Source: Rhodospirillaceae bacterium (lineage in GTDB: Bacteria > Pseudomonadota > Alphaproteobacteria > CACIAM-22H2). From it: 64,000 bases of DNA. Where the stretch lies: positions 17,253 to 81,252 of the forward strand of contig JAIXXA010000132.1 in assembly GCA_027490975.1 (NCBI GenBank), read 5' to 3'. Position numbers and translations under genes: made by a program. Shown piece by piece: positions 4,910 to 48,492 of this stretch (its first letter is position 1; each line of letters opens with the position of its first letter). The notes beneath the pieces were generated by a model. That model made no database searches. It saw only the letters and a list, made by a program, of their open reading frames with translations, and had not been told where the DNA came from.

Positions 4910-6190
4910 ATGCTCGTCGTCGCCATCGCCTTCAGCGTATTCGTGCTTCTCGGCATGCCCGTGGCCTTCGCCATCGGCGTGTCCGGCGCGATCTTCTTCG
5001 TGCTGAATCCGGACCTTCCTTTCACCATTCCGGTCCAGCTCGGGGTCTCGCAGACCCAGAACTTCGCCTTGCTCGCGATTCCGCTGTTCATCCTGGCCGG
5101 CAACCTGATGAACTCCGCGGGCATCACCGAGAAACTGCTGAATCTCGCCTCGGTGGTCGCCGGGCGTCTGCGCGGCGGCCTTGCGCAGGTGACGATTGCG
5201 CTTTCCGCCTTCATGGGCGGCGTATCCGGATCGGCGATCGCGGACGCGGCGATGCAGTCGCGCATGCTCGGACCCGAGATGCTGCGCCGCGGCGTGAGCA
5301 AGGGCTATGCGGCCGGCATCCTCGCCTACAGTTCGATCCTCACGCCCATCATTCCGCCGGGCATCGGCTTCATCATCTACGGCACGATCGGCCAGGTTTC
5401 GATCGGCCGCCTGTTCGCGGCGGGTTTCGTGCCGGCAGCATTGCTGTGGATCGCGCTGTCGGTGGCCGTGACGGTCACCGCGCGCCGGCGCGGCTACCCG
5501 CCCGAACGCGCGACGGCACCCAGCTTGGGCGAAGCAGCGGCGGCTTTCCGCGGCGGGATTTGGGCGCTGCTGTTTCCGATTCTGCTGCTGGCCGGTTTGC
5601 GGAGCGGCGTGTTCACGCCCTCGGAGATCGGCGCCGTCGCCGTCGTCTACGCGCTTTTTGTCGGCGTCGTCGTGCACCGTCGCATGGGACGGCGCGAAAT
5701 GGCTGAATCGCTCGAAGGCAGCGTCGGCGACGTCGGCAGCACGATGTTCCTCATCGCGCTCTCGGCCATCTTCGCCTACGGCATCGTCTACGAACGTGTG
5801 CCCGATACGATCTCGGCAGCGATGCTCGACACGTCCTTCGGGCTCAACGGCGTGATGCTCATGATCGTCCTGTTCCTCCTGGTCGCCGGTTTCTTCATCG
5901 ACGCGACGGTGCTGATCATTCTGCTGACGCCGATCTTCCTGCCTTTGGTCCTCGATCTGGGCGGCGACCCCGTGCATTTCGGCGTCGTCTTCATCGTCGC
6001 GGCCACGATCGGCAATTTCACGCCGCCCGTCGGCGCCGCGATGTACGCGGTTTGCGCGATTCTGAAATGCCCGATCGCCGACTATACGCGGGAGTCGATG
6101 CCGTTTCTGGCGGCCGTCGCGTTCGTCGCGGTCTTGCTGATTTTCATTCCCGAGATCGTCCTGTCGCTGCCCAATCTGGTGTTCGGCTGA
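4910..6190 (+). CDS. dctM: TRAP transporter large permease (DctM family)
   Basis: 426-aa polytopic membrane protein with the DctM-like pattern MPVAFAIG...LAIPLFILAG. Confidence 0.9.
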   Translation: MLVVAIAFSVFVLLGMPVAFAIGVSGAIFFVLNPDLPFTIPVQLGVSQTQNFALLAIPLFILAGNLMNSAGITEKLLNLASVVAGRLRGGLAQVTIALSAFMGGVSGSAIADAAMQSRMLGPEMLRRGVSKGYAAGILAYSSILTPIIPPGIGFIIYGTIGQVSIGRLFAAGFVPAALLWIALSVAVTVTARRRGYPPERATAPSLGEAAAAFRGGIWALLFPILLLAGLRSGVFTPSEIGAVAVVYALFVGVVVHRRMGRREMAESLEGSVGDVGSTMFLIALSAIFAYGIVYERVPDTISAAMLDTSFGLNGVMLMIVLFLLVAGFFIDATVLIILLTPIFLPLVLDLGGDPVHFGVVFIVAATIGNFTPPVGAAMYAVCAILKCPIADYTRESMPFLAAVAFVAVLLIFIPEIVLSLPNLVFG

Positions 6191-6194
6191 GCGC

Positions 6195-6236
6195 TGCCGG
6201 GCCTTCCCTGCAAGCAAGGAAGGCCCGGCGTTCGTC
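6195..6236 (+). terminator. Putative intrinsic terminator after dctM (12-bp perfect stem GCCGGGCCTTCC/GGAAGGCCCGGC)
   Basis: Perfect inverted repeat at 6195-6206 and 6217-6228 directly after the dctM stop. The U-tract is weak (gttcgtcgctaatt). Confidence 0.45.
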
Positions 6237-6302
6237 GCTAATTCCGATGGACACTTGAGCTCGACGCACGGACAGGCTAGAAAAACGGCGGCGCTTCGCG
6301 AT

Positions 6303-6376
6303 GCGGGTGTAGCTCAATGGTAGAGCCGGAGCTTCCCAAGCTCAAGACGAGGGTTCGATTCCCTTCACCCGCTCCA
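6303..6376 (+). tRNA. tRNA-Gly(CCC): tRNA-Gly (anticodon CCC)
   Basis: GCGGGTGTAGCTCAATGGTAGAGC...CTTCCCAAGCTC...GGTTCGATTCCCTTCACCCGCTCCA folds as a cloverleaf: 7-bp acceptor stem, D, anticodon and T arms, TTCGATT T-loop, encoded CCA. Near-identical to E. coli tRNA-Gly(CCC). Confidence 0.9.
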
Positions 6377-6416
6377 GCCGCCCTCCCGCTCCGGCCCTGC
6401 TCGCCCTGGGGCGCGC

Positions 6417-7421
6417 CTAGCTGGCGCGCCCGGGCGCCGCTTCGCCCTTCGTCTTCCACAGGCTGAACAGGATGCCGGACGCCAGGATCGCGACGGTGAT
6501 GCCGAGCCCCCAGGCCGGCGGAAACTTCTCCCAGCCCAAGCCCCAGGCGACGAAGATCTTCGAGCCGATGAAGATCAGCAGGATCGCGAGCGCGTATTTG
6601 AGATAGTGGAAGCGATGGACCATCGCCGCGAGCGCGAAATAGAGCGCGCGCAGGCCCAGGATCGCGAAGATGTTCGACGTGTAGACGATGAACGGGTCCG
6701 TCGTGATCAAGAAGATCGCGGGCACCGAATCGACCGCGAAAATCACGTCGGCGATTTCGATCAGAATCAGCGCCAGGAACAGCGGCGTCATGAAACGCGC
6801 AAGCTTGCCCGATCCGGCCGGCGCTTTGGGGTCGGGAAGCTGCACGAAGAATTTCTCGCCGTGCAGCTTCTCGGTCACGTTGAAGCGCCGCTTGAGCCAG
6901 AGCAAAGCCGGATTGTTCGCAATGTCGGGCTGCTGGTCGCCCATATAGAGCATCTTCACGCCCGTGAAGACGAGGAAGAGGGCGAAGATGTAGAGCACCC
7001 ACGAAAAATTCTCGACGATCGGCGCGCCGATGCCGATCATGATCGCGCGCAGCACGATCACGCCGAGAATGCCCCAGAACAGCACGCGATGCTGGTAGAG
7101 GCGCGGGATCGCGAAGTAGCCGAAGATCATCGCGATGACGAAGACGTTGTCCATCGCCAGCGTCTTCTCGATCGCGAAACCCGTCAGGTATTCGACGCCG
7201 GACTGGGGCCCGAGATACCACCAGACCCACGCGCCGAACAGCAGGCCGAGGCTGATGTAGCCGGCCGACAGAATAAGGCTCTCCTTCGCCTCGATCTCGC
7301 GGTTCTCCTTGTGCAGAACGCCGAGATCGAGCGTGAGCAAAGCTGCGACGATGCCCATGAAGGCAAGCCACATCCACGCGGGTTTGCCGAGCCATTCGGC
7401 GGACAGGAAAGCGAATTCCAT
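6417..7421 (-). CDS. TerC-family integral membrane protein
   Basis: Internal ATG at 7421 (MEFAFLSAEWLGKP) with GGAG upstream. Multi-TM protein with the TerC signature region (AMDNVFVIAMIFGYF...DSVPAIFLITTDPFIVYTSNIFAILGLRALYF). The N-terminal extension of the track ORF is unlikely to be coding. Confidence 0.8.
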   Translation of the reverse strand: MEFAFLSAEWLGKPAWMWLAFMGIVAALLTLDLGVLHKENREIEAKESLILSAGYISLGLLFGAWVWWYLGPQSGVEYLTGFAIEKTLAMDNVFVIAMIFGYFAIPRLYQHRVLFWGILGVIVLRAIMIGIGAPIVENFSWVLYIFALFLVFTGVKMLYMGDQQPDIANNPALLWLKRRFNVTEKLHGEKFFVQLPDPKAPAGSGKLARFMTPLFLALILIEIADVIFAVDSVPAIFLITTDPFIVYTSNIFAILGLRALYFALAAMVHRFHYLKYALAILLIFIGSKIFVAWGLGWEKFPPAWGLGITVAILASGILFSLWKTKGEAAPGRAS

Positions 7422-7711
7422 CGGGAGATCCTTCGAGAATCGGCACGCGCATCGGGAGAGATCCGACATCGCGTTCGCGCCGACAGCGCACGCCAGAGGG
7501 GCCCGGATCAAGGGTTGGTTGCTATATGGGCGATAGTCCCGGCTTTTCAAGGCCCGTTTTTTCCGCGTGCCCGCTTGAATACTCGGCGGCGATCTTCCTA
7601 TTTCGCTCGCATCAGGGTCCGGGCCCCTCTGGTCGGCCTCTTCGGCGCGGCGATGTCGGACTCTTCCATCTCGGACGGGCGGAAAATGCCCGTCTCTCTT
7701 GGGAGAAGATC

Positions 7712-8122
7712 GTGACGCATTCCGGCTCCATCGATATCGACGGCGAGGTTCTGCCGCCGCCGCACAAGTCCCGGCGCACTGCCGACACCGACGCCGCACG
7801 CGAACGGCTCGAGGCCCTCGCGCGGACGCTCGACAGCGCCGTGCGCATCCCCGGCACGTCGATACGCATCGGCGCGGATGCGGCCCTCAATCTGATCCCG
7901 GGCCTCGGCACGCTCGCGGCCAAGGGGCTTGCGGGCTATCTGATCTGGGAAGCGCGCCGCCTCGGCGTGCCGACGCGCACGCTGCTGCGCATGGTCGGCA
8001 ATGTCGGCCTCGACGCGGCGATCAGCGCCATTCCCGTGCTCGGCTGGTTCGGCGACGTGTTCTGGCGCGCCAATGCGCGCAACATCGCCTTGCTGCGCGA
8101 CCATATCGACGCGCAAGCGTAG
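7712..8122 (+). CDS. DUF4112-domain membrane protein
   Basis: GTG at 7712 with GGGAGAAG upstream. Contains the IPGTSIRIGADAALNLIPGLGTLAAKGLAGYLIWEA motif characteristic of DUF4112. The upstream part of track ORF 7526..8122 has poor GC3 and is probably noncoding. Confidence 0.6.
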   Translation: MTHSGSIDIDGEVLPPPHKSRRTADTDAARERLEALARTLDSAVRIPGTSIRIGADAALNLIPGLGTLAAKGLAGYLIWEARRLGVPTRTLLRMVGNVGLDAAISAIPVLGWFGDVFWRANARNIALLRDHIDAQA

Positions 8123-8137
8123 GCCGCCCGACGGACC

Positions 8138-8920
8138 TCAGTAGCCGTCGTCGAGTTCGGCGCGCAGTTCCTCGAAGCTCGGCACGAAGCCGGTGGCGGC
8201 GGCCATCTTGGCACGTTCCGCATCGTCGAGATTTTCGACCGACGCGAGCCATGCGTCGAGCATCAGGCGAGCCTGGGCCGGCCCCACGATGTCGGTCGCA
8301 GCGGGCTTGCCCGTGCGCACGACGACGTTGGCCGACAGGCTGATCTGGCCCGAGCGCATGTTGAGGATGCTGACCATATGGGTGAGCCGCGCGTCGAAAT
8401 GCCGGAAGGCCGCCGGCAGGCGCACGGCGAACTGCCACCAGATCGGCTGCGCCAACCGGTAGAAGCGGTCCCAGTCGACGCCGCCGTCGCCCGCGCATTT
8501 CTTGGCCAGATCTTCGGCCTCGTGCACAAGCGCCTGTTCGAGCTCCTCGCCCAGAATGAGGCGCGCGAAATGCCGCACGCCGTGATGCACGGCGCGCGGG
8601 ACCTTCTCTTCGGCGAGCAGCGCGCTCAACGGCCGGAACAGAATCCGCCCGAACGGGTCTTTGCGCAGATGGCGCGCCCAGCGCCCTTCGAGTTCCTTGC
8701 CGATGCCGGCGAGCGCCACGCGCGCGATCTTGGCGATGCGGCCGTTGTTGATCATCTCGGCCATCGCGGCGTTGAGATCGCCGACCTCGAGCGGTTCGGC
8801 CTTGTCGGCTTGGCGCGCCTGCACCGTTTCGATGAAGCCGCACAGAATCTCGACGGCGAGAATCTCGAGTTTTTTCTGCTCTTCCGATCCTGCGCCCGAA
8901 ACGGAATCTCCGTCGGCCAT
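8138..8920 (-). CDS. Hypothetical protein (helical; possible ferritin-like/di-iron fold, family not recognised)
   Basis: 260-aa ORF with good GC3 bias and E/H-containing helices (EILAVEILCGFIE..., HHGVRHFARLILGEELEQALVHEAED). No confident family assignment. Confidence 0.65.
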   Translation of the reverse strand: MADGDSVSGAGSEEQKKLEILAVEILCGFIETVQARQADKAEPLEVGDLNAAMAEMINNGRIAKIARVALAGIGKELEGRWARHLRKDPFGRILFRPLSALLAEEKVPRAVHHGVRHFARLILGEELEQALVHEAEDLAKKCAGDGGVDWDRFYRLAQPIWWQFAVRLPAAFRHFDARLTHMVSILNMRSGQISLSANVVVRTGKPAATDIVGPAQARLMLDAWLASVENLDDAERAKMAAATGFVPSFEELRAELDDGY

Positions 8921-8997
8921 TGCGGATCTCCTTCTATAAGTGAAGATTATGCCGCTGCCGGATCAGGTCAAGAGATACCGCAGTGCAGCATCCGAAT

Positions 8998-10674
8998 TTA
9001 GGCGTGCTGCACCGCACACCAGCGCCGCCACAAAGCGCGGTAGAGACGTTCGTAATCGCGTGCATGGCGTTGCAGATTGCAAAGGGACGAGGCGGCGACG
9101 CGTGCGCGCAACGCCGGCCGGTCTTGGTGCGGGGCGGCCGCCGCAAGCCGTGCCGCAAGTTCGGCGAAACCCGCTTCGTCGTCGGCGGCCCAATCGGCAG
9201 CGCCGATGCGCGCCAGCAATGCGGCCGTCCAGCGCGCCATGATCGTCCGACCTCGCAAGGCTGCGATCGGCACGCCCATCCACAGCGATTCGAAACTCGT
9301 GGTGGCCCCGTTGAACGGCGTGGTGTCGAGGGCGAGATCGATGCGCTGGTAGAAGCGCAGATGCTCGATCAATCCGAGATTGCCGCGCTCGAACACGATG
9401 CGCTCCGGGGCGACGCCGAGTCCCTCGAAACGCTTGCGGAAATTCGCGACGGTCTCGGGATCGTCGTAGCGCTGCGCGGATTTGAGGCGCAGCTGCGAAC
9501 CCGGCACCGCGCGCAGCGCCGCCGCCCACAAGGCGAAAGTGCGTGCGGAGAATTTCGACGGATGGTTGGCTGAACCGAACGTGACGTGGCCGTTGGCGAC
9601 GCAGGGTGGGGGCAGAAGCTCGGGTGCGGACGCCAGATGCGGATGCACGAACATGGCGCGCGTGCGCAAAGGCCGCTCGGTCAAGCGGTCGTCGCCGCCG
9701 CCCGCCATCGCGGGATCGAGCACGATGCCGTCGAACACGTCGGTGCCCGTCGTGCTCGAATCGTAGATCGAGAGCTGGACGGGGGCGGGCCGATGCAATG
9801 CAACGCCGAGGCGGTTCTCGTCGAAATGGGCGGCACTCAGCACCAGAATGTCGATGCCGTCGGCGCGCATGCGCGTCGCAACTTCCGCATCCGACATGCC
9901 ACGCGTCGAGACCCAACCGTCGGCGAGCGCCTGAAAGCGCTTGGTGATCGCATCGTCGGCGCGCGTTTCGGAATACGCGAAGACCTCGAAGCGGCTGCGG
10001 TCGCGATAGGCGAACAGGGCTTCGAGCGGGCGGGCGACCGAATGGTAGCGGAAATCCGACGACACGTAGCCCACGCGCAAGCGCCGCTCGGGCTCGGGCA
10101 CGTTGCCGTGCGGTGCCGGCGGCTGCGACGGGGCGAGTGCGGCCGCGCGCCGGCGATTGAGCGCGAGGATCGCGTCGGGATCGCTCGCATCGTCGTAGGC
10201 CATGGCGAGAAGCTGGGCCTTATAGGCCCCGTCGCGCTCGGCACCGCTCGCACGTGCGGCCGCTTGCGCAAACGCCGCGGCCGCGCGTGCGGGCTCGGCC
10301 AAGCCCAGCAAAGCCTGGCCGAGCTCGTAGCGGATGCGCGGCGAATCGGGGGCCGCCTGCGCGCACAAGAGCCCGAGATTGACGGCAAGCTGGAAGCGGT
10401 TCGTGGCGCGCAGCACGTGGCCCAGCGCCACCATCAGATTGAGATTGGCCGGAGCGTCGCGCAACGCGGCATTCAGCATATGGGCTGCCCGTTCGCCCTG
10501 CCCCGCTTCGCACAGCGCAAGCGCATAGTCGCACAGGCACGCGACGTCGCGCGGGCGCAGGCGCAAAGCGCGCTCGAACAGGGCGAGCGACAGCGCGCTG
10601 TCGCCCGACTGCCGGGCCGCGACCGCAGCCGCCAGCAACACCTCGAAATCTTCGCGTTCGCCGTCCGAAGCCAT
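8998..10674 (-). CDS. TPR-repeat glycosyltransferase family 41 protein (O-GlcNAc transferase/SPINDLY-like)
   Basis: Start MASDGEREDFEVLL at 10674. N-terminal TPRs followed by the GT41 C-terminal catalytic region (RLRVGYVSSDFRYHSVA...GHVTFGSANHPSKFS...TTPFNGATTSFESLWMGVPIAALRG). The upstream extension of the 950-aa track ORF is an out-of-frame artefact. Confidence 0.85.
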   Translation of the reverse strand: MASDGEREDFEVLLAAAVAARQSGDSALSLALFERALRLRPRDVACLCDYALALCEAGQGERAAHMLNAALRDAPANLNLMVALGHVLRATNRFQLAVNLGLLCAQAAPDSPRIRYELGQALLGLAEPARAAAAFAQAAARASGAERDGAYKAQLLAMAYDDASDPDAILALNRRRAAALAPSQPPAPHGNVPEPERRLRVGYVSSDFRYHSVARPLEALFAYRDRSRFEVFAYSETRADDAITKRFQALADGWVSTRGMSDAEVATRMRADGIDILVLSAAHFDENRLGVALHRPAPVQLSIYDSSTTGTDVFDGIVLDPAMAGGGDDRLTERPLRTRAMFVHPHLASAPELLPPPCVANGHVTFGSANHPSKFSARTFALWAAALRAVPGSQLRLKSAQRYDDPETVANFRKRFEGLGVAPERIVFERGNLGLIEHLRFYQRIDLALDTTPFNGATTSFESLWMGVPIAALRGRTIMARWTAALLARIGAADWAADDEAGFAELAARLAAAAPHQDRPALRARVAASSLCNLQRHARDYERLYRALWRRWCAVQHA

Positions 10675-37047: not shown

Positions 37048-38325
37048 ATGGTATTGCATCGGATCGTGTTTGCAGCACTCGCCCTGCTGCTGTCTACCGC
37101 CGCCGCAAGTGCCCAATCGGTGCACACGATGCCGGTGGGCAGCGTGTTCGAAGGCAAGGTCGCGTTCGCGCGCTCCGAAGTGCCGCTGCCGCCGGGCAAG
37201 TGGACGCTCGCGAGTGCGGGGGAAGAATTGACCGCAATAACTGCCGGTGCGGCAACATTCCGCCTCGCCTTCGCCAATCTCGTCCAGATCGAGGGCGGCA
37301 AATTGTCGGCGCTCGTCGCGATCCACGGCACGCGCAACGTCGAAGCCGTCGGCTGGACGCGCGACTCGACCTGCGACCGCAGCGACATGCTCTATGTTGC
37401 GGCCGACAAAAATTTCCGCGCGACGGACCAATGGTGTTCGTATATTTCCCACAATATTCGAAGCTGGGTCGCGACCGAGCAGACGCCACCGAGATCGGCC
37501 ACGTTGTTCGAGTATCTGCGCAAAGAAAACATCAAAAAACCTTGGACGATGCTGGCCACGACGTCGCGTCTTGTGCGCAACGGCGAACTGATCGTCGTCA
37601 GCTACGAGGTCGATCCGCAGATGCATGGCGGGCCAGCGACAAAGATCATTGCGCTGCAGACGAGCGAATGGCATCCGCAGCGCATCCAGGACTATCCAGC
37701 ACACCGGGCCTATGCCGACAAATGGATCGAATGGTCCAAGCCCCTTCTCGACGGACTCAAAGAAGGATTCGGCAGGACGCTGCGCACCGCCAGATTGCCG
37801 ACGTTTCCGAAAATGGGCCTGGCTGCGATGGGCATCCGGCACGCCCCGGTCGGAACGCATTTCGTCACGGAGAATGGCGGTTTGCGCATTCAAGCCTTGG
37901 AAGGCACGGCGGTGACGACGGTCAATGCGCGCAACAACACGACACAATGGCAAGTCGGCGGATTGGTTCCCGTCGGCAGCAACCGCGTAACCGACCCCGA
38001 AAGAGCCGAACGCATCTTGCCGCTGCAAGTCGGTAACAAGACGGTCTTCGAGCGCTCGGCCACCGTCGGTACGCTCAAATGGCGGCATACGATGGAAGTT
38101 GTCCGGACCGAAACCTTGTCGGTCGACGGGCGCGACTATGCGACGTTTGTCGTGGAAGATCGAATCGAGGGGCTGTCGCCGTCGCAGCAGGGCTTTGTCA
38201 TGAAGCGGACCGCGTGGTTCGCGCCCGAGGCAGGTTGGCTGCTGCGGATGGCTGAAGAGCAGCTCGGCGGCGAGCCGGTAACGATGAACAATTGGCGGGT
38301 CGTCAAGATCGTGCCGCCCAGCTAA
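37048..38325 (+). CDS. Hypothetical secreted protein (no recognised family; locally lower GC)
   Basis: 425 aa, signal peptide MVLHRIVFAALALLLSTAAASAQS. Codon usage includes AAA/ATT/TAT-rich stretches (about 37400-38000) unlike its neighbours. A TTGACA -35-like element lies upstream at about 36990. Confidence 0.7.
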   Translation: MVLHRIVFAALALLLSTAAASAQSVHTMPVGSVFEGKVAFARSEVPLPPGKWTLASAGEELTAITAGAATFRLAFANLVQIEGGKLSALVAIHGTRNVEAVGWTRDSTCDRSDMLYVAADKNFRATDQWCSYISHNIRSWVATEQTPPRSATLFEYLRKENIKKPWTMLATTSRLVRNGELIVVSYEVDPQMHGGPATKIIALQTSEWHPQRIQDYPAHRAYADKWIEWSKPLLDGLKEGFGRTLRTARLPTFPKMGLAAMGIRHAPVGTHFVTENGGLRIQALEGTAVTTVNARNNTTQWQVGGLVPVGSNRVTDPERAERILPLQVGNKTVFERSATVGTLKWRHTMEVVRTETLSVDGRDYATFVVEDRIEGLSPSQQGFVMKRTAWFAPEAGWLLRMAEEQLGGEPVTMNNWRVVKIVPPS

Positions 38326-39419: not shown

Positions 39420-40532
39420 ATGGATTGCATTTCCGACTGGCTGGTCGCCGAGGGTCCGCACGTGGCAGACATGGGCGCGCTGCTGAGCGGCTTGGCCGAG
39501 CGGCTGCTGGCGGCCGAGATCCCCGTGGCGCGCATGGCAACCATGATCGAAACGCTGCATCCGCGCTTCATCGGCGCGATGCGCGTCTGGGAACCGAACG
39601 GCGACGTGAAGCTGCGCCGCGCCACGTTCGACGACCCGGTCATAACGGCGGCCCCCAAACGCTTCACGATCGACGAGCTGCAGGAAACCGGCGATTGGGT
39701 CGAATTCAAGCTCGACGATCCGCGCATCGACGCCTACGACCTGCTGCCGCGCCTGGCACAGGAAGGCCACACGCATTACCTGCTGATGCCGCTCCGGTTC
39801 CGCGAAGGCCCGCTGCAGGGGATGTCGTTTTCCACCAAACAGGCGGGCGGCTTCACGGCCGCGCAGAGCCGTGCCATCCGCACGCTGCAGCCGAGCCTGG
39901 CCTTGACCGCCAACGTGATCGCCACGCACACGATGTGGCGCGAGGTGCTGAAGGCCTATGTCGGCGAAGTGCCGGGCGATTTGATTCTGCAAGGGGCGAT
40001 ACGGCGGGCGGACGTGCGCCGCGTCCAAGCCGCTTTGATCATGACCGACATGCGCGGCTTCACGCGGCTTGCCAATGCGAGCACGCCCGAGGCGACGGTC
40101 GCCGCCCTCAACGCCTATCTCGACAATGTGGTGCCCGCGATCGCGGCGGCGGGCGGCGAAATCCTCAAATTCATCGGCGACGGCGTGCTGGCCACGGTCC
40201 CATTCAACGATGCCGGGAACGCTGCGGCGGCCTGCGCAGCGGCTTTTGCGGCAGCCCAAGCGATTCGCCAGGCCGCCCCCAATGTCGGCATCGCTTTGCA
40301 TGTGGGCGAGGTCGCGTTCGGCAATATCGGGGCGGGCGACCGGCTCGACTTCACGATCATCGGGCGCGACGTCAATCTGCTCGCGCGCATCGAAAAAATC
40401 TGCGGCGAATTCCACGAAGACATCGTGATGTCGCAGGCTTTTGCCGCTTTGTGCGGTGCGCCAGCGCGCCTCGTCACGCGCTTCACGCCCAAAGGCTTCG
40501 ACGGCGAAGAGGCCGTGTTCGCACCGGCCTAA
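39420..40532 (+). CDS. Class III adenylate/guanylate cyclase with N-terminal sensory domain of unknown type
   Basis: C-terminal CHD domain (IMTDMRGFTRL...KFIGDGVLA...GEVAFGNIGAGDRLDFTIIGRDVNLLARIE). The N-terminal roughly 190 aa are unassigned. Confidence 0.85.
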   Translation: MDCISDWLVAEGPHVADMGALLSGLAERLLAAEIPVARMATMIETLHPRFIGAMRVWEPNGDVKLRRATFDDPVITAAPKRFTIDELQETGDWVEFKLDDPRIDAYDLLPRLAQEGHTHYLLMPLRFREGPLQGMSFSTKQAGGFTAAQSRAIRTLQPSLALTANVIATHTMWREVLKAYVGEVPGDLILQGAIRRADVRRVQAALIMTDMRGFTRLANASTPEATVAALNAYLDNVVPAIAAAGGEILKFIGDGVLATVPFNDAGNAAAACAAAFAAAQAIRQAAPNVGIALHVGEVAFGNIGAGDRLDFTIIGRDVNLLARIEKICGEFHEDIVMSQAFAALCGAPARLVTRFTPKGFDGEEAVFAPA

Positions 40533-42250
40533 GCGATCCCCAACCGCCGGTCGGCCACGTTCCAGAACTGCGTGTGGAACGCGCGCAAGGACGGGCGATG
40601 GCCGATGCTGACGATCGCCGTGTCGGGCAGGCTGCGATCGAGCAGTTCGTAGATATGCGCTTCGTTGGCGTCGTCCATCGCGGCGGTCGCTTCGTCGAGG
40701 AACAGGAAGTCGGGCTTCGCCAGCAGCGCGCGCGCGACGGCCAGGCGCTGCTGTTCGCCCGGCGACAAAGTCTGCCCCCAATTGGCGTGTTCGTCGAGGC
40801 GCGCGCCCAATGCCGGCAGGCGCACAGCCTCGAGCGTGGCGCGCAAGGTTGCGTCGTCGGCCCCACCATTGTGCGGATAGAGCAAGGCCTCGCGCAGCGT
40901 GCCGATCGGCATGTAGGGTTTCTGCGGCAAGAAGAGCGGCCGCGCGGCCTTCGGCAGCAGCACGGCGCCGCGCCCGAACGGCCAGATGCCCGACAGCACG
41001 CGAAACAGCGTGCTCTTGCCGCTGCCGGACTCGCCGGTCAGCAGAATGCGCGCACCGGGCGCGATCGCCACGCCGGCATCGGCAATCAGCACGCGCCCGT
41101 CGGGCAAAGCCACGTCCACGCCCGCAAGGCGCAACTGCCCGTCTTGCGAAGCGCCGTGCACAAGCGGGGCGGCCCGCTCCGCCTTCGCGGCGGCGGCCAC
41201 GGCCGCTTCGAAATCGAGCAGCCGGTCCACGACCGCCTTCCAGTCGGCCAGCTGCGAATAGGCTTGCACGAAGAAGGACAAGGCACCCTGCACCTGGCCG
41301 AAGGCGGACGCCGTCTGCATGAGGCCGCCCAGCTGCATCGAGCCCGAAAAATAGCGCGGGGCCGCGACGATGAACGGGAACACGATCGCGATCTGCGCGA
41401 ACAGGCTCGTGAACAGATTGAGCTTGAGGCCCGCCCACATGAGATCGCGCCAATTGGCGACGACGGCGGCAAAGCGCGCCAGAAAATCGCGCCGCTCGCG
41501 CGCTTCGCCGCCATAGAGGGCGACCTGTTCGGCGTTTTCGCGCAAGCGCATCAGCCCGTAGCGGAAATCGGCCTCCACGCGCTGCTGCGCGTAGTTGAGC
41601 GGAACGAGCGGCTTGCCCACTTTGTGCGTGAGCCACGTGCCGACGACCGAATAGACGAGGGCAAACCACACCATGTAGCCCGGGATCGCGATCTCGCGGC
41701 CGAACAGCGTGAAGCCGTAATCGCCCGACAGGCCCCACAAAATGCCCAGGAACGCCACCAGCGTGAGCACCGAATTGACGAGCTGCACGAACAGCCCGAG
41801 CGTGGTCGCAACGAACAGGCGCACGTCCTCGGCGATGCGCTGGTCGGGATTGTCGGTATCCGCGCCGGTCAGCTGGAAACGGTAGTAGATTCGCGCCTTG
41901 AGCCAGCCGTCGATGTAGCGCTTGGTGAGCCAGTCGCGCCAGCGTATCTGCAGCCACAGGCTGAAATAACGCGTGGCGACGAAATTGCCGATGAAAAGCG
42001 CCGCAAGCCAGCCGAACACCGCGAATTCGGCCCAGAACGTGGCTTCGTCGCGCTCCTGCAGCGCGTTGTAGAAATCGTTGTTCCAGCTGTTGAACAGCAC
42101 CTCGAGATAGACCCCGCCGACCGTGAGGCCCATCACGGCGCCGAACAGCAGGCAGGCCGGCAAGCGATCTTCCGACACCCAATAGGGGCGCGTGAGGCGC
42201 CACAGCCGTGCCGCAAATCCCGCCGGTTTTTCGCCCGTCATGTTCGGCAT
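40529..42250 (-). CDS. ABC transporter fused permease/ATP-binding protein (SbmA/BacA-YddA-like)
   Basis: N-terminal 6-TM domain plus C-terminal ABC ATPase (GESGSGKSTLFRVLSGIW, LSPGEQQRLAVARALL, LFLDEATAAMD). Start at MPNMTGEKP (42250). The upstream track extension is unlikely to be coding. Confidence 0.85.
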   Translation of the reverse strand: MPNMTGEKPAGFAARLWRLTRPYWVSEDRLPACLLFGAVMGLTVGGVYLEVLFNSWNNDFYNALQERDEATFWAEFAVFGWLAALFIGNFVATRYFSLWLQIRWRDWLTKRYIDGWLKARIYYRFQLTGADTDNPDQRIAEDVRLFVATTLGLFVQLVNSVLTLVAFLGILWGLSGDYGFTLFGREIAIPGYMVWFALVYSVVGTWLTHKVGKPLVPLNYAQQRVEADFRYGLMRLRENAEQVALYGGEARERRDFLARFAAVVANWRDLMWAGLKLNLFTSLFAQIAIVFPFIVAAPRYFSGSMQLGGLMQTASAFGQVQGALSFFVQAYSQLADWKAVVDRLLDFEAAVAAAAKAERAAPLVHGASQDGQLRLAGVDVALPDGRVLIADAGVAIAPGARILLTGESGSGKSTLFRVLSGIWPFGRGAVLLPKAARPLFLPQKPYMPIGTLREALLYPHNGGADDATLRATLEAVRLPALGARLDEHANWGQTLSPGEQQRLAVARALLAKPDFLFLDEATAAMDDANEAHIYELLDRSLPDTAIVSIGHRPSLRAFHTQFWNVADRRLGIA

Positions 42251-42266: not shown

Positions 42267-42737
42267 TCAGACCGCGCGTTCGAGCGGGTCTTCGAAGGGC
42301 GTTTCGCTGGGGTCTTCGAAGCGCTGCAGCCGCGCTGCCGCAAGCCTTGCAAAGCGCAGCGTGAGGGCGCGGCGGCGCGGTGCAGCCAGCGGCGCGCAGA
42401 TCTGGAACGGCCGCCGCAACGCCCCGTCGAACGCGTCGGCCACGATGAGGCCGGCGGTTTCCGGGATCAGACGGTCGGGAAAATCGGCCGGGACCGCAAA
42501 CGCAAACGCGTCGCACCATTCGAGATATTCGGGCCATTTGGCGTCCGACTGGAAATCGGCGGCCGACGATTTGATTTCGACGATCGCAAAGCGCCCGTCG
42601 TCGGCGAGGGCCAGAATGTCGGCGCGCCTGCCGCTCGCAAGCCCCGCCTCGGCAATGCCGACATAGCCGAGATTGCGCAGAAGCCTGAGGGTGCCGCGCC
42701 GGACCTGGCGTGCGACAAGATCGTCGCGCGGCTTCAC
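42267..42737 (-). CDS. MmcB-like / PD-(D/E)xK nuclease-fold protein (DUF1052-like)
   Basis: GTG at 42737 overlapping the upstream gene stop (GTGA). 157 aa with a D...EIK motif (ADILALADDGRFAIVEIKSSAADFQSD) matching PD-(D/E)xK / MmcB family proteins. Only this C-terminal frame segment of the long 742-aa track ORF looks protein-like. Confidence 0.55.
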   Translation of the reverse strand: MKPRDDLVARQVRRGTLRLLRNLGYVGIAEAGLASGRRADILALADDGRFAIVEIKSSAADFQSDAKWPEYLEWCDAFAFAVPADFPDRLIPETAGLIVADAFDGALRRPFQICAPLAAPRRRALTLRFARLAAARLQRFEDPSETPFEDPLERAV

Positions 42738-44464
42738 ATGAAACCGGCTTGGCGCATCAGCACGAACAGGTCGCGCTGGGCGCGCGCCTTTTCGGCCGGA
42801 TCGACGATGTCGGCCACCACTTCGCCTTCGAAATTGGGCCGCTTCAGCATGCCCACGATGATGGCGCGCGCAAGGTTCGACGCCTTGCCCGGCGGCAGCG
42901 AAGTGGGCAGGCACATTTTCATCAGCATCATCGTGCGCATGCGCAAGGGCCGCGCCGGATCGTCGATCTTTTCGAGGATGCGCTCGGACTTGACGAAATG
43001 CACGAGCAGGTCGTCGAGGCGCGTGCAGATGCGCTCGACATGTTCGGGCGGCAGCGGCGAACTGCGGATCTCGCCCCAGACTTGCGTGATGCCGGCCATC
43101 TTCTCGTTGGGGGGCACGCGCGCTTTGACGATGTCGGAAATCGACTCGACGTTCACGAGCACGTCTTCGATGAGGCCGAAGGCCTCGTCCGGATAGAGGC
43201 GGGCGGTCGGCGTCTGCGTGAGCGCGATCAAGAACCGCGTCTTGCGCAGCGGATTGAGCATGACCATCGCAATCCACGCGGCCGCGGCCCGGAACCCCCC
43301 CGCGCCGCCGCGATTGAGGATGCGCATCTTGCGTTGCACGAGCGCATCCACAAGATAGCTGCCGCCGAGCGGCGGAGCCGCATCCGGCATCAGCCGGTCG
43401 AGGATCTGGCGGAAGGTCGGGATTTCCTGCTCGGGATCGCTGCGCACGAGCGGATTGGCGCCGCTGAGCTGGATGCGCACGCGCTCGATCAGCACCTGGC
43501 TGCAGCCGGGCAAGCGCCCGGCCTGCACGAGGCGCGCGATCTGCACGATGCTGTCGTCGGTCCCGCCTTCGGCGGCCGCCGGTGCGACGCCGGGCGGCGG
43601 GGCTTGCCATTGTCCGAGGGCAACGTCGAGCAGCTTGTTGACGGCGGCGGCAAGGCTCGGCTGGTCGCCGAGCAGGTCCTGGATCACGCTCGCCGTGCCC
43701 AGAATGTCCGCCACGAAATCGTCGAGCCGGCGAGCGGCCGCGTCGTCCTGGCTGTCGTTGATCCAGAACAGCAGGCGCTCGAGCTTGCCGAGATAGTTGC
43801 GAATTTCGATGAGTTCGCGGCTGACGGCCACGCGGAACAGAAAATCGGCATTGGCCGGACTGTCGCCAGCGCCTGCCGCGACTTTGGCGACCGTGGCGTC
43901 GAGTCCGAGCTGCTTGATCGACGGCAGTTGCAAGGTTTCGACGTCTTTGGTGCGCTTGCCGATCTCGGTCGCAAAACCGAACAGCGCATCGCGACGCTGG
44001 GCGACCGTCGCCCCGCCGGCCGCGCCTTCGGCCTGCAGCGTGGCGACCTGGTTGAGCGCGCTGCCGACCAGCGAATCCTGATCCTGCAGCCGCTTGTATT
44101 CGCGGTAGTTGTGCAGCACCTCGATCGGCGTCAGGCTCTGCTTGTCGAGATACATGCGCATGAGCCGGTTCATGGCCATGCGCGCCTGCAACTGCAGGCA
44201 ATCGTCGGCCGTCTGGCAGGCCGGGGCGGCGTCGATGCGACCGACCGTCAGTTTCTCTTCGCGCTTCTCTTTGATCTTGGTGAAGACCGCCGTCTGCGAG
44301 CCGCCGCTTGCCTTTTCGCGGAAAACCTTGACGCCCTCGACCTCGCGCTTTTCGAGCATGCGGCGCGCGAACGCTTCGGCCTCCGCCTGGTTGGGCAGGC
44401 TCGTTTCGATAATCCATCGGCCTTCTTTGAGGCACTGGACCTCGAAAATCTCTTTTTTGAACAA
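42734..44464 (-). CDS. Conserved hypothetical protein (576 aa, soluble, alpha-helical; family not recognised)
   Basis: Balanced amino-acid composition (K/E/I present) and strong GC3 bias, unlike the overlapping R/G-rich antisense ORFs. Translationally coupled to the MmcB-like gene. Confidence 0.7.
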   Translation of the reverse strand: MFKKEIFEVQCLKEGRWIIETSLPNQAEAEAFARRMLEKREVEGVKVFREKASGGSQTAVFTKIKEKREEKLTVGRIDAAPACQTADDCLQLQARMAMNRLMRMYLDKQSLTPIEVLHNYREYKRLQDQDSLVGSALNQVATLQAEGAAGGATVAQRRDALFGFATEIGKRTKDVETLQLPSIKQLGLDATVAKVAAGAGDSPANADFLFRVAVSRELIEIRNYLGKLERLLFWINDSQDDAAARRLDDFVADILGTASVIQDLLGDQPSLAAAVNKLLDVALGQWQAPPPGVAPAAAEGGTDDSIVQIARLVQAGRLPGCSQVLIERVRIQLSGANPLVRSDPEQEIPTFRQILDRLMPDAAPPLGGSYLVDALVQRKMRILNRGGAGGFRAAAAWIAMVMLNPLRKTRFLIALTQTPTARLYPDEAFGLIEDVLVNVESISDIVKARVPPNEKMAGITQVWGEIRSSPLPPEHVERICTRLDDLLVHFVKSERILEKIDDPARPLRMRTMMLMKMCLPTSLPPGKASNLARAIIVGMLKRPNFEGEVVADIVDPAEKARAQRDLFVLMRQAGFM

Positions 44465-44530
44465 CGCACGCCCCCGGTCCTAACTGCTTATCCATATTAA
44501 ACGCGACGCGTTGCGGGTTACAATGGGGCC

Positions 44531-45298
44531 ATGTTGGCGGTCGAGCGAATTCCGTGTTTGCAGGACAATTACGTCTGGCTGCTGCGCAGCGCCGGCGGCG
44601 AAGGCGTTGGCGTCGTCGATCCGGCCGAAGCGGCTCCGGTCGAGGCGGCCTTGGCGCGGCACGGTCTTTCCTTGACTCACATCTTCAACACGCACCACCA
44701 CGGCGACCATGTCGGCGCCAATCTGGCGCTCAAGGCGAAACACGGTGCCGCGATCGTGGGGCCGCGCGCAGATCAAGCGCGCATTCCGGGCATCGATGTG
44801 GCGCTGGGCGACGGCGAGACCTACACGTTCGACGGCGAAATCGCCACGGTGCTCGACGTGCCCGGCCACACGCGCGGTCATATTGCGTTCTGGTTTGCCG
44901 GCAGTGCTGCGCTGTTTTGCGGCGACACGCTGTTTGCGCTCGGCTGCGGGCGCATGTTCGAAGGGACTGCGCCGCAAATGTGGCAGTCGCTGGCGAAGAT
45001 CCGCGCCCTTCCCGACGCGACGCAAGTTTACTGCGCGCACGAGTACACGCAGAGCAACGCAAAATTTGCGGTCAGCGTCGATCCGGACAATGCGGAACTG
45101 CGCGCGCGGGCCGCCACGATCGACCGCCAGCGGCATGCCGGCGAAGCAACCGTGCCCTCGCTGCTGGGCCTCGAAAAGCGCACCAACCCGTTTTTGCGTG
45201 CCGACGATGCAAACCTTGCGCGCCGCATGGGACTGCCCGCGACGCAGCCGGCCGCGGTCTTCGGCGCCTTGCGCGCGGCCAAGGACGCGTTCCGATGA
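44531..45298 (+). CDS. gloB: Hydroxyacylglutathione hydrolase (glyoxalase II)
   Basis: 255 aa. NTHHHGDHVGAN metal-binding motif and the GloB C-terminal region. Confidence 0.9.
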   Translation: MLAVERIPCLQDNYVWLLRSAGGEGVGVVDPAEAAPVEAALARHGLSLTHIFNTHHHGDHVGANLALKAKHGAAIVGPRADQARIPGIDVALGDGETYTFDGEIATVLDVPGHTRGHIAFWFAGSAALFCGDTLFALGCGRMFEGTAPQMWQSLAKIRALPDATQVYCAHEYTQSNAKFAVSVDPDNAELRARAATIDRQRHAGEATVPSLLGLEKRTNPFLRADDANLARRMGLPATQPAAVFGALRAAKDAFR

Positions 45299-45654
45299 CC
45301 AGCGAATACCGCGTCGTGTTTTTCGACGATCGGGAGATCGTGATGGCGCTCATCGAACATGCGCGCACGCAAGGCACGAAACTGCCCGCGAGCAAAGCGA
45401 TCAAGCTCGAAATCGACCGCGCCACGCTGACGGCAAAACTTGCTTTTGCGCGCCGCAGCACCCCGAACGAGGCGCCGATCGAGTTCAACTCGGCAGCGCT
45501 CGCACAAGCGCTGATCCGCTACTGCAAAAAGGCCGGCATTCCGCTGCCCGTGAAGTCCAACAAGGAACTGCGCGTCATGGACGACCGCGTGGCTTTCATC
45601 GTCGAACTGCAGCGCGCGCCCGCCGATGCGCTGGTCCCGGTCGAATACGAGTAG
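45295..45654 (+). CDS. Hypothetical protein (119 aa), translationally coupled to gloB
   Basis: ATGA overlap with the gloB stop. Good GC3 bias. No family recognised. Confidence 0.55.
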   Translation: MTSEYRVVFFDDREIVMALIEHARTQGTKLPASKAIKLEIDRATLTAKLAFARRSTPNEAPIEFNSAALAQALIRYCKKAGIPLPVKSNKELRVMDDRVAFIVELQRAPADALVPVEYE

Positions 45655-45717: not shown

Positions 45718-46698
45718 TCAATTGCGCTGGCTGATCGACACCGCATAGGCGGGCTGGCGCGCCGTGAAGAGCGGATCATTTGTCGGCCCCGCAATGCCGT
45801 CGGCGAGATTGAGAGGATCGAAAATGCGCTCGTCGCAGGCTTCGTTCTTCGCAAGAGCCGTGAAATTCATGCGACCGAGCCGGGTCGTGGGCCGCTGTTC
45901 TTCGTCCGGCCATTGCTGGGTCGCATTCGTGGCCTCGTCGCCGGGGCGGCCGAAAACGACAACCATGTCGAAAGCAGCGGTATTGGCGGCGATCCGCGCT
46001 TTCATGTCGTCGACGAGGAAATCGGCGGGCTTGGCGGCGGCTTCCGCGTCGGTGAGACCGACTTCGCCGCCGACCGGCACCATCTTGAATTTGACCAGGC
46101 GATTGACGCCCGCCGCATCGGTCAAGGTGTAGCCGTGGATGCCCCAATAATTGACGCCGACCCAGGAACCCGGCACCGGTTTGCTCGCAAGATACCGACC
46201 TTGCGCGGTGGTTTCGGGGTTGGCTTCGGTGAAGGCGCGGATCTTCTCCGCATCGGGGCGGCCGTCGGCACCCGGTACGCGCGCTTGCAGGAAAGCCAGC
46301 ATCTGGTCGGGCGATTTCACGAAATTGATCGGCGCGTTGACCATCACGAACTCGGTCTCGGCGCGGCCGCCGTCGTCGATCCGGAAGGAGAAACCGCGAT
46401 TGACCGTCTTGGTCGCGTCGGCGACCTTCGGATTGCCGCCGCCGACCGACAGGCGGGCTACAACCGGCGAAGTCTTTGCGAAAATTGCGGATTTGCTGAG
46501 GGCCGCGGCTTCCGCCGTGGGCGTGAACGTGCCTGCAAAACACTGGCCTTTGGCGCCGCTCGGCCGCGCCTTTTGGTTGCCGGTGAGTGCACGCTGGATT
46601 TCGACGATTTTGCCCGGATCGGCGGTTTGGGCGAAAACCGGTGCGCTCGCGGCGACCAAGGCCGACGACAGCGCAAAAGCGGCGAATTTGAGTTTCAC
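45718..46698 (-). CDS. Catalase-related peroxidase (small haem catalase-like protein, SrpA-like), secreted
   Basis: 326 aa with signal peptide. The catalase-core-like N-terminal region (RGFSFRIDDGGRAETEFVMVNAPINF) is typical of catalase-related immune-responsive domain proteins. Confidence 0.75.
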   Translation of the reverse strand: MKLKFAAFALSSALVAASAPVFAQTADPGKIVEIQRALTGNQKARPSGAKGQCFAGTFTPTAEAAALSKSAIFAKTSPVVARLSVGGGNPKVADATKTVNRGFSFRIDDGGRAETEFVMVNAPINFVKSPDQMLAFLQARVPGADGRPDAEKIRAFTEANPETTAQGRYLASKPVPGSWVGVNYWGIHGYTLTDAAGVNRLVKFKMVPVGGEVGLTDAEAAAKPADFLVDDMKARIAANTAAFDMVVVFGRPGDEATNATQQWPDEEQRPTTRLGRMNFTALAKNEACDERIFDPLNLADGIAGPTNDPLFTARQPAYAVSISQRN

Positions 46699-46765
46699 GG
46701 GGGTGCTCCTTCAAACGGCTTGCGAAAGATGTCGCACTTGCCGTTCGCTTGGCGGAATTCGCAGG

Positions 46766-47614
46766 TTACGCGCCGTCGGTCGGAATTTCGTTCGCGGGAT
46801 CGTCCGTCGGCTCGAACAGCAAGACGCCGCCCAAGCTTGCCGGCAGAACCACGCTTCGGGACGCGCTGCCGGGCGGCGTCGCGAGCGCATAACCCGCAAT
46901 CCACGGCAAGCACGGCGGTGCGACGCCCAAGCGCCGTTCCGTGGCGGACGGATCGCGGAACACGAGCGTACCGCGCGCCGTTGCAAGTCCCGGCGCATCG
47001 TCGATGCGGATAGGCGCAAGGCCCGTATAGGCGGCATAACGCAGAACCGCCGCATGCGGGTCGGCCACACAGATCTCGACGTGTTTCAAGCGCGTCGCCT
47101 CGTTTTTGTGGCGCAGCCATCGTGCCTGCCACAGATGTTCCGGCGTGTGCTGTTCGACGAACTGCACACGGCCCTCTTCCATCACGCCCGGCTTGGTGCG
47201 CACGACCGTGAAGCGCGCTTCGCGAAAACCGTCCGGCGTTTCGATCGGGCGGCGCAAGGCGACGGGCTCGAGCGGCGCAAAGCCGTTGGCCTGCAGGCGC
47301 GCCTGGTCGCCCGCCGGATCGACGGTGCCGAACGCGATCAGATGCACGCCCGTGTAGCGCGCGATCCCGGCGCGCAAGGTGGCGGCGTTCGGCGTGTCGG
47401 CGATCGGCGCCAGGAATTCGAGATAGCCGCCTTCGAGCATCACGCAATGGTTGCCGGTCCCGGCCGGGATGGGCGGATCGCCGACGCTTTGCGCCGAAAA
47501 CGGCGTCACACAGAAGCCGAGATCGGCCAACGCGGCGGCCGCCGCCGCCGGGTCCGGCACCCAATGCGCAATATGGTCGAGCACGAGTTGGCCACGTTCG
47601 GGGCGCTGGCTCAT
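46766..47614 (-). CDS. VOC-family (glyoxalase/bleomycin-resistance/dioxygenase fold) protein
   Basis: Start MSQRPERGQLVLDHIAHWV at 47614 (ATGA overlap with the upstream MBL gene). Two VOC-like modules. The N-terminal extension of the 563-aa track ORF is an artefact. Confidence 0.7.
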   Translation of the reverse strand: MSQRPERGQLVLDHIAHWVPDPAAAAAALADLGFCVTPFSAQSVGDPPIPAGTGNHCVMLEGGYLEFLAPIADTPNAATLRAGIARYTGVHLIAFGTVDPAGDQARLQANGFAPLEPVALRRPIETPDGFREARFTVVRTKPGVMEEGRVQFVEQHTPEHLWQARWLRHKNEATRLKHVEICVADPHAAVLRYAAYTGLAPIRIDDAPGLATARGTLVFRDPSATERRLGVAPPCLPWIAGYALATPPGSASRSVVLPASLGGVLLFEPTDDPANEIPTDGA

Positions 47615-48492
47615 GGCTTGCGCCCGAGCTGCAGATGGAAATCGCGATGCGCCACGCGCCGCGTGGCACAGTCGAAGCGCATCAGATCTTCGCCGACCGC
47701 GATCGGCCCCGCATAGTCGCGCGCGACCTCGGCCAGCACCGCATCGCGATCGAAGCGCGTCGGCACAAAATGGTTCAGCACGAGCAGCTTCGCGTTCGCC
47801 TGGGCTGCGACACGCCCGACTTCGTCGGAGCGCGTATGGTATGAGGCCACGGCCGCAACCGTCGCGGCCGAGCGCACGCCGTGCACGGGCTGCAAGTCGC
47901 GATGCACAAAACATTCGTGCACCAGCACGTCGGCTTCGCGCGCGACTTCGATCAAAGCCGGGCAGAAAGCGGTATCGCCGCTGAAGGCGGCTTTGAGGCC
48001 TTCGGCTTCGAACACGAAGCCGAAGGCGTGGCGCACGGGCGCGTGGGCGACGGCGACGGCCGTCACGCGCACGCCGCCTTCGTCGAACACCGTCCCCGGT
48101 GCGATCTCGACCGTTTCGATTTCGAACGCGGCGACCGAGCCGCGCTGCTCGTGCGCGATGCGCAAGCGCCGCTCGGTTTCCCACAAAGCCATCGTGCCTT
48201 CGACAAAAGCCTTGGTGCCCGGCGGCCCGAACACGCGCTGCGCACGCGGCCGACCCTGATGCCAGCTCGAAATCACGAGCTGGTAGAAGTCGACGACATG
48301 GTCGGTGTGCAGATGCGTCAGAAACAGCGCGTCGATGTCGGCCCCGCGGCTGCCCGCTTCGACGAGGCGCTGGGTGACGCCCGAGCCGCAATCGACGAGA
48401 AACTGCTGCCCGCGCGCGCGCACCAAATTCGACGGGCCGCGACGCGCCGGGTCGCATTGCGGACAGCCCGTTCCCAGCAGCACGATTTCCAT
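47611..48492 (-). CDS. MBL-fold metallo-hydrolase (RNase Z / beta-lactamase superfamily)
   Basis: 293 aa. HLHTDHVVDF (HxHxDH) motif. Confidence 0.85.
   Translation of the reverse strand: MEIVLLGTGCPQCDPARRGPSNLVRARGQQFLVDCGSGVTQRLVEAGSRGADIDALFLTHLHTDHVVDFYQLVISSWHQGRPRAQRVFGPPGTKAFVEGTMALWETERRLRIAHEQRGSVAAFEIETVEIAPGTVFDEGGVRVTAVAVAHAPVRHAFGFVFEAEGLKAAFSGDTAFCPALIEVAREADVLVHECFVHRDLQPVHGVRSAATVAAVASYHTRSDEVGRVAAQANAKLLVLNHFVPTRFDRDAVLAEVARDYAGPIAVGEDLMRFDCATRRVAHRDFHLQLGRKP

Follow-up and report, generated by a model that had tools for sequence, protein, structure and literature searches.

In a 64,000-nucleotide (nt) stretch of the genome of a Rhodospirillaceae bacterium (GenBank assembly GCA_027490975.1, contig JAIXXA010000132.1, positions 17,253 to 81,252; the whole stretch is called the window here, and positions are counted from its first letter), a gene for an MmcB-like nuclease of the PD-(D/E)xK type begins on the stop codon of a gene encoding a 576-amino-acid (aa) protein of a large, unnamed family. 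The explanation that we favor, and in which we place moderate confidence, is that the two genes form a lineage-specific operon with a constitutive promoter, that MmcB is made by translational reinitiation, and that the large protein has a function independent of MmcB that is probably regulatory. The pairing is probably a local, clade-specific gene arrangement rather than a new two-part machine, and mmcB appears to have been taken out of the SOS regulon by a clade-specific operon rearrangement. The locus is a pointer to an unnamed protein family and an example of regulatory rewiring, not a new kind of system, and it does not overturn current understanding.

mmcB starts on the stop codon of its upstream neighbor

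Both genes lie on the minus strand. The 576-aa gene (42734-44464) starts with a TTG codon at 44464, an assignment secured by a TAG that lies in frame 15 nt upstream and by the first residues of the protein, which are kept among homologs. Its 3' end reads ...GGT TTC ATG TGA, with the TGA stop at 42736-42734, and mmcB (42267-42737) starts with a GTG at 42737-42735 that is made up of the G of the final ATG followed by the TG of the stop codon. The resulting GTGA overlap (42734-42737, minus strand) had been read correctly in an earlier note made from the sequence alone, which gave the small protein as 157 aa; its length is 156 aa. No alternative start codon occurs in the mmcB frame between this GTG and the conserved MmcB core, and the same frame contains no further ATG, GTG, or TTG within approximately 170 nt 5' of the core. 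Nor does the sequence before the GTG contain a purine-rich Shine-Dalgarno motif. Four-nucleotide overlaps of start and stop codons are a common arrangement in bacteria, and what goes beyond chance here is not the overlap itself, but its invariance among relatives down to 61% protein identity (see below). These features suggest that the 576-aa gene and mmcB are translationally coupled. Because the GTG lacks a Shine-Dalgarno sequence and overlaps the upstream TGA, MmcB would be the product of ribosomes that finish translating the large gene and then restart at the GTGA, and because it would be made in this way, its level would track translation of the upstream gene rather than DNA damage.

The small protein is an ordinary MmcB nuclease

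By its sequence and its predicted fold, the small protein is a PD-(D/E)xK nuclease of the MmcB (DUF1052) family, a solid and ordinary assignment that bears out the MmcB likeness and nuclease motif proposed in the earlier note. The protein scores 148.4 bits against the PF06319 hidden Markov model (gathering cutoff, 22 bits; E = 1.7e-43), covering profile positions 14 to 147 of 148, and its sequence also matches PDB entry 3dnx (SPO1766 of Ruegeria pomeroyi) with an E value of 3.4e-31. In an alignment of 31 diverse MmcB-family homologs, E30, D40, E54, and K56 are invariant and make up the E...D...ExK pattern, which is intact in the window's protein, where the four residues align with the corresponding residues of 3dnx. 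An AlphaFold2 (AF2) model of the protein (predicted local distance difference test score [pLDDT], 91.5) contains the PD-(D/E)xK core and is predicted to share the fold of 3dnx, which Foldseek retrieved at E = 5.6e-17 with template modeling (TM) scores of 0.78/0.83; the matches ranked after 3dnx are weak, and all of them are PD-(D/E)xK nucleases (NucS/EndoMS, Bax1, SfsA, the AdnAB nuclease domain, and Cas4-like proteins).

The DUF1052 family had been placed in the PD-(D/E)xK group by sequence analysis (PMC1189080, PMC3424549), and according to a review, Caulobacter MmcB is an endonuclease under SOS control that gives protection from both mitomycin C and cisplatin (PMC9578287). Like MmcB of Caulobacter crescentus and other members of PF06319 (DUF1052, COG5321), the window's small protein lies above the threshold of the family model and keeps the E...D...ExK residues, and it would be an ordinary repair nuclease of the Caulobacter, mitomycin C-protective kind. 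The family comprises at least 6,790 clusters. MmcB is among the few bacterial factors tied specifically to the repair of mitomycin-type cross-links.

The pairing is conserved within one clade

A scan of one genome per species yielded 18 loci, from Tagaea, Telmatospirillum, and other Rhodospirillales metagenome-assembled genomes (MAGs), in which the large protein is 61 to 94% identical to that of the window. mmcB lies directly downstream of the large gene in 17 of these loci, and in every one of the 17 the junction TTCATGTGA is identical, with its GTG in the mmcB frame; the sequence right after the junction varies by in-frame insertions and deletions. In two further loci from metagenomes (L033 and L034), the coordinates of the two genes match such that the last base of the final sense codon in the large gene is also the first base of mmcB, as it is in the window. 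Overall, the pairing is present in 19 of the 21 loci in which the large protein is at least 61% identical (range, 61 to 95%).

The two remaining loci, L002 and L029, lack mmcB and have an intact large gene whose product is 81 to 83% identical to that of the window. mmcB has thus been lost twice inside the clade, with the large gene retained. In L029 (metagenome contig Ga0164290_1000068, positions 6680 to 6780), the deletion of mmcB is exact and the TTCATGTGA junction has been kept, such that its GTG now opens the gene for an ATP-binding cassette (ABC) transporter (MSQRFSARLWRLTRPYW...) and apparently couples the transporter to the 576-aa gene. Since mmcB has been deleted exactly and the large gene kept, the large gene does not need mmcB, and since the GTG now starts the ABC gene, the junction seems to act as a coupling point for whichever gene follows. 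The arrangement in L029 is consistent with a single translation-coupled unit.

The pairing is not found outside the clade

To the species-scan loci we added 47 from metagenomes, located with a 13-sequence subset of the large-family alignment, and nine from exact-protein look-ups, and each open reading frame (ORF) in these added loci was searched with an iterated (jackhmmer) MmcB profile. In 42 of them the large protein is no more than 45% identical to that of the window and the sequence extends at least 500 nt downstream; mmcB is present in none of these 42, in agreement with the called genes, and none has nearby either the ABC transporter gene or the gene for GloB (hydroxyacylglutathione hydrolase), which lies next to the 576-aa gene in the window. 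The neighborhoods of these distant family members differ from one another and consist mostly of housekeeping genes, and all-against-all clustering of the neighboring ORFs revealed no family-wide partner, the clusters being mostly shadow frames of the large gene and clade-inherited neighbors in a marine subgroup (EamA, DUF1194). In three examples from outside the clade, mmcB stands alone or heads a small operon of its own, and no relative of the large gene lies beside it in any of these three loci. The 576-aa gene and mmcB are therefore not a widely conserved unit, given that the large family lacks mmcB in 42 distant loci, that mmcB occurs without the large gene outside the clade, and that mmcB has been lost twice within it. 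A general functional module made up of the two genes is unsupported. The earlier note had proposed that the pair forms a unit, and this holds, as a gene arrangement, for the clade, where the genes appear translationally coupled and are syntenic in 19 of 21 loci, but not for the distant loci or for the two clade members that have lost mmcB.

DUF1052 has been reported to co-occur with Lactamase_B (PMC3424549), which suggested an ancestral gloB-mmcB pair; this idea is unsupported, with no gloB nearby in any of the three mmcB loci examined from outside the clade. Separately, an ORF of approximately 147 aa without a Pfam match follows the standalone mmcB in two lineages (L075:4483-4929 and L077:4490-4930; 41% identity between them), and in L075 it overlaps the mmcB stop codon by 4 nt. 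MmcB may thus have another recurrent partner in this conserved ORF.

The clade lacks the LexA box found at some standalone mmcB genes

Perfect alphaproteobacterial LexA boxes (GTTC-N7-GTTC) lie 10 to 30 nt before the start of standalone mmcB genes in two independent lineages, a Hyphomonas-like genome and another alphaproteobacterial genome (L075:3978-3992, L076:3978-3992, and L077:3970-3984; L075 and L076 are near-duplicates and were counted as one lineage), where they read GTTCCGGTATTGTTC and GTTCTCAAGATGTTC. As sequence matches, these boxes fit the SOS control reported for mmcB of Caulobacter. No LexA box precedes the standalone mmcB of a third lineage (L078). In contrast to the SOS-regulated gene of Caulobacter, mmcB of the window has no LexA box, promoter, or Shine-Dalgarno sequence of its own and is coupled to an upstream gene: a search of 42267-44560 that allowed up to one mismatch found no alphaproteobacterial LexA box, and the 14 promoter regions checked from clade loci that carry mmcB have none either. 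Window-wide, one-mismatch matches to the box numbered 42 against 47.9 expected, no more than chance.

A promoter-like element lies in the 66-nt gap between the 576-aa gene and the divergent gloB gene, at 44494-44523 on the minus strand, where TTGTAA (44523-44518) and TAATAT (44499-44494) are separated by an 18-nt spacer. In an alignment of this intergenic region from 15 clade loci, conservation is confined to the columns of two blocks, CATTGTA and TTAATAT, and we infer that they form the -35/-10 pair of a putative sigma70-type promoter. This conserved, probably constitutive promoter in the gap shared with gloB would drive cotranscription of an operon in the order 576-aa gene, mmcB, and, in the window's sublineage, the ABC transporter gene. 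Within the clade, mmcB would have lost the LexA-box promoter of standalone mmcB genes and become a second cistron, and MmcB would be present at a steady, SOS-independent level set by translation of the upstream gene. So viewed, the locus belongs to a clade in which mmcB gave up its SOS box for translational coupling, which would make it a natural experiment in the rewiring of a repair nuclease.

The large protein belongs to an unnamed family of predicted helical proteins

The 576-aa protein is soluble (63.5 kDa; pI 8.4), with no hydrophobic or transmembrane segment found, and it has no matches in Pfam, NCBIfam, PHROGs, or PADLOC, in agreement with the earlier observation that it contains no recognizable motif. 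Sequence searches of the PDB gave only chance-level matches, the best being histidine ammonia-lyase (E = 0.021) with the single sequence and S100-A9 (E = 0.77) with a profile. A word-indexed search with the protein found 20 relatives, all of them hypothetical proteins from Rhodospirillales-type MAGs, and a diverse 70-sequence profile found the same 20 close relatives in a search of this kind and added none. An exhaustive profile search retrieved 996 representatives, one per 50%-identity cluster, at E values of 1e-3 or below, 408 of them at 1e-30 or below. On the basis of these 996 representatives, the 576-aa ORF, for which the existence of homologs had been in question, is a member of a large unnamed family. 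Most representatives are 560 to 590 aa long and align end to end; they come from alphaproteobacterial MAGs and from marine, freshwater, and soil metagenomes, and all named members that we saw are annotated "hypothetical protein." Only W17, A29, C83, E115, K227, G266, and G284 are invariant in a 70-member alignment (22 to 75% identity), and the window's protein matches the family over its full length with W17, C83, E115, K227, G266, and G284 conserved. This conservation marks the ORF as a real, conserved, and uncharacterized gene.

An AF2 model of the protein (pLDDT, 86.4; predicted TM score, 0.75) has a small N-terminal beta-beta-alpha-beta-beta domain (about residues 1 to 64; residues 5 to 64 in the model itself), a poorly ordered linker that contains the invariant Cys83, and an all-helical body (residues 87 to 573). 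Foldseek searches with this model returned nothing at E values of 1e-3 or below from either the PDB or BFVD. The best subthreshold PDB folds are importins, HEAT subunits of cohesin and condensin, and designed repeat proteins, with TM scores of 0.1 to 0.24. The modeled body is all-helical and confidently predicted, as in alpha-solenoid (HEAT/ARM-like) scaffolds, but the protein has no Pfam-detected repeat family and no match at E values of 1e-3 or below; the resemblance of the model to helical-repeat proteins is one of fold class and not of homology. The predicted N-terminal domain (residues 1 to 64, encoded by 44269-44464) superposes with a root mean square deviation of 2 to 3 Å on many uncharacterized 60- to 90-aa phage proteins in BFVD, with E values of 0.03 to 0.5 that are not significant, and when ten N-terminal domains of the family were scanned in isolation against Pfam (E values up to 10), nothing consistent emerged.

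Domain fusions in the family point to a role in signaling. A cyclic-nucleotide-binding domain (cNMP_binding, PF00027) replaces the last approximately 85 residues in 17 of the best 150 family representatives, and a Ser/Thr protein kinase is added C-terminally in 2 of the same 150. About one-ninth of these 150 thus share with PF00027 effectors the arrangement of a common core of approximately 490 residues followed by a C-terminal cNMP-binding domain, whereas the window's protein has an approximately 85-residue helical C-terminal module of its own and no cNMP-binding domain. Because of these cNMP-binding and kinase fusions, the shared core may have a regulatory or signaling role. The 576-aa protein, with its small predicted alpha/beta N-terminal domain and large helical body, is most likely a regulatory or scaffold protein in signaling whose function does not depend on MmcB. 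The gene upstream of mmcB thereby reveals a family of approximately 1,000 clusters that has neither a Pfam model nor a structural relative and that includes fusions to cNMP-binding and kinase domains. A new domain entry for this family, and a study of its function, would be reasonable. In a Ferrovibrionaceae MAG (L021), two family paralogs with 52% identity lie in tandem on the same strand (6001-7728 and 8090-9817), and in a subgroup with 41 to 43% identity to the window's protein a protein of approximately 430 aa without a Pfam match is encoded divergently from the family member in two loci (L023:4508-5803 and L019:1883-3169; 84% identical).

Alternative explanations for the pairing

Several points weigh against the operon reading. 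The absence of a canonical alphaproteobacterial LexA box is compatible with other damage-responsive control, which may act on the operon. A sigma70 consensus scan scored no promoter in the gloB gap, as the conserved blocks fall below the threshold of the scanner, and the proposed signaling or scaffold role is drawn from a helical fold of a generic kind and from domain fusions that occur in distant relatives. Conservation of the junction is partly explained by the conserved ...AGF C terminus of the large protein. Finally, four-nucleotide coupling that is invariant down to 61% identity often marks proteins that work together, and the two proteins may be direct partners within the clade. Such a partnership is the main rival: the 576-aa protein would be dedicated to MmcB as a helical scaffold by which the nuclease is recruited, held in check, or directed to its targets, and the two would be made together because they form a complex. 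The tight coupling fits this idea, the GTGA overlap having been retained in 19 of 21 clade loci across 61 to 95% protein identity, as does an mmcB gene without a Shine-Dalgarno sequence or promoter of its own, and helical-repeat proteins are common as interaction platforms. It is weakened by the lack of any wider association, mmcB being absent from all 42 distant loci of the large family and working elsewhere, in a far wider family, without the large protein, and by the two clade members in which an intact large gene has outlived mmcB; overall, we regard a partnership as unlikely. A bolder version, to which we give a small chance, would have the 576-aa family be new helical regulators linked to second messengers or kinases, one of which was recruited in the Tagaea/Telmatospirillum clade as a stoichiometric partner that controls or targets MmcB, with control at the protein level taking the place of LexA.

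The large protein might instead work with GloB, with the ABC transporter, or with both, against reactive electrophiles or imported toxic compounds, leaving MmcB as a fellow traveler in a stress and detoxification cluster. gloB is indeed the most constant neighbor, occurring in every clade locus whose upstream sequence is available; L029 couples the large gene directly to the ABC gene after the loss of mmcB, and glyoxalase-like, catalase-related, and metallo-beta-lactamase (MBL)-fold genes lie just upstream. However, the ABC gene is missing from the flanks of L012, L014, and L015, which are 61 to 63% identical and extend 6 kb downstream (L013 and L016 end too soon on that side to be informative), no more distant family member has gloB or the ABC gene alongside it, and adjacency within one genus-level clade perhaps reflects inherited gene order. 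We give this link a slim chance. The earlier note had also raised the possibility of a toxin- or defense-like pair, in which the nuclease would be the effector of a toxin-antitoxin or antiphage module and the large protein its sensor or antitoxin. An overlapping pair of a small nuclease and a larger uncharacterized protein has the appearance of such a module, one distant family member adjoins a TIR-TPR gene and a MazE/PIN pair, and another lies near an integrase gene and parE. Against this, PADLOC assigns the large protein to no family and gives only insignificant matches for MmcB (best E value, 0.0064, to a candidate model), the locus is surrounded by housekeeping genes, its synteny is stable and its GC content unremarkable, the MmcB family is one of chromosomal repair genes that have SOS boxes elsewhere, and the contexts of the large family are mostly housekeeping. 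Because PADLOC, composition, and context give it no support, we consider a toxin or defense module highly improbable.

Neighboring genes

The gene downstream of mmcB (40529-42250, minus strand; ATG at 42250, with an alternative ATG at 42241) begins 16 nt after the mmcB stop codon and encodes an ABC half-transporter with matches to PF06472 (ABC_membrane_2; E = 5.5e-58), PF05992 (SbmA_BacA; E = 1.1e-37), and PF00005 (ABC_tran; E = 1.5e-17). It shares the ABC_membrane_2/SbmA_BacA membrane domain and the ABC ATPase with SbmA/BacA-related transporters of the YddA/Rv1819c type, but all its NCBIfam matches score below the cutoffs, no equivalog cutoff being reached, and it is linked to the pair in only part of the clade. 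A consensus scan found no terminator-like site in or beside the gap between mmcB and the ABC gene, its two matches in the region being located deep within the reading frames of the large gene and the ABC gene. The ABC gene also directly follows mmcB in the closest loci (L001, L017, L033, and L034), and it is probably the third cistron of the operon. In several Tagaea loci, an extra ORF of approximately 220 aa without a Pfam match separates mmcB from the ABC gene (L005:8201-8863, and the gaps of approximately 0.8 to 0.9 kb in L003, L004, L006, L009, L011, and L018); the 16-nt gap of the window has no such ORF.

The pair had been described as convergent with the exporter gene, but the latter is codirectional with it. 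The gene that faces the ABC gene is instead one encoding a class III adenylate/guanylate cyclase (39420-40532, plus strand); these two are convergent, and their 3' ends overlap by 4 nt. The cyclase gene is syntenic in many clade loci, and cNMP-binding domains occur in part of the 576-aa family. Further along lies a 425-aa ORF (37048-38325, plus strand) that encodes an N-terminal hydrophobic leader and has no Pfam match. On the other side, gloB (44531-45298, plus strand; Lactamase_B and HAGH_C domains in Pfam) is retained next to the 576-aa gene in L029 and also in L067, where the large protein is 55% identical, and it is followed immediately by a 118-aa ORF without a Pfam match (45298-45654, plus strand). 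The description of MmcA from Caulobacter goes no further than a probable enzyme of detoxification. Past gloB, the minus strand of the window carries a run of stress- and detoxification-type genes (45718-48492) that encode a catalase-related protein (45718-46698), a Glyoxalase_3 protein (46766-47593), and an MBL-fold hydrolase (47611-48492) with a subthreshold match to the anti-Pycsar Apyc1 family.

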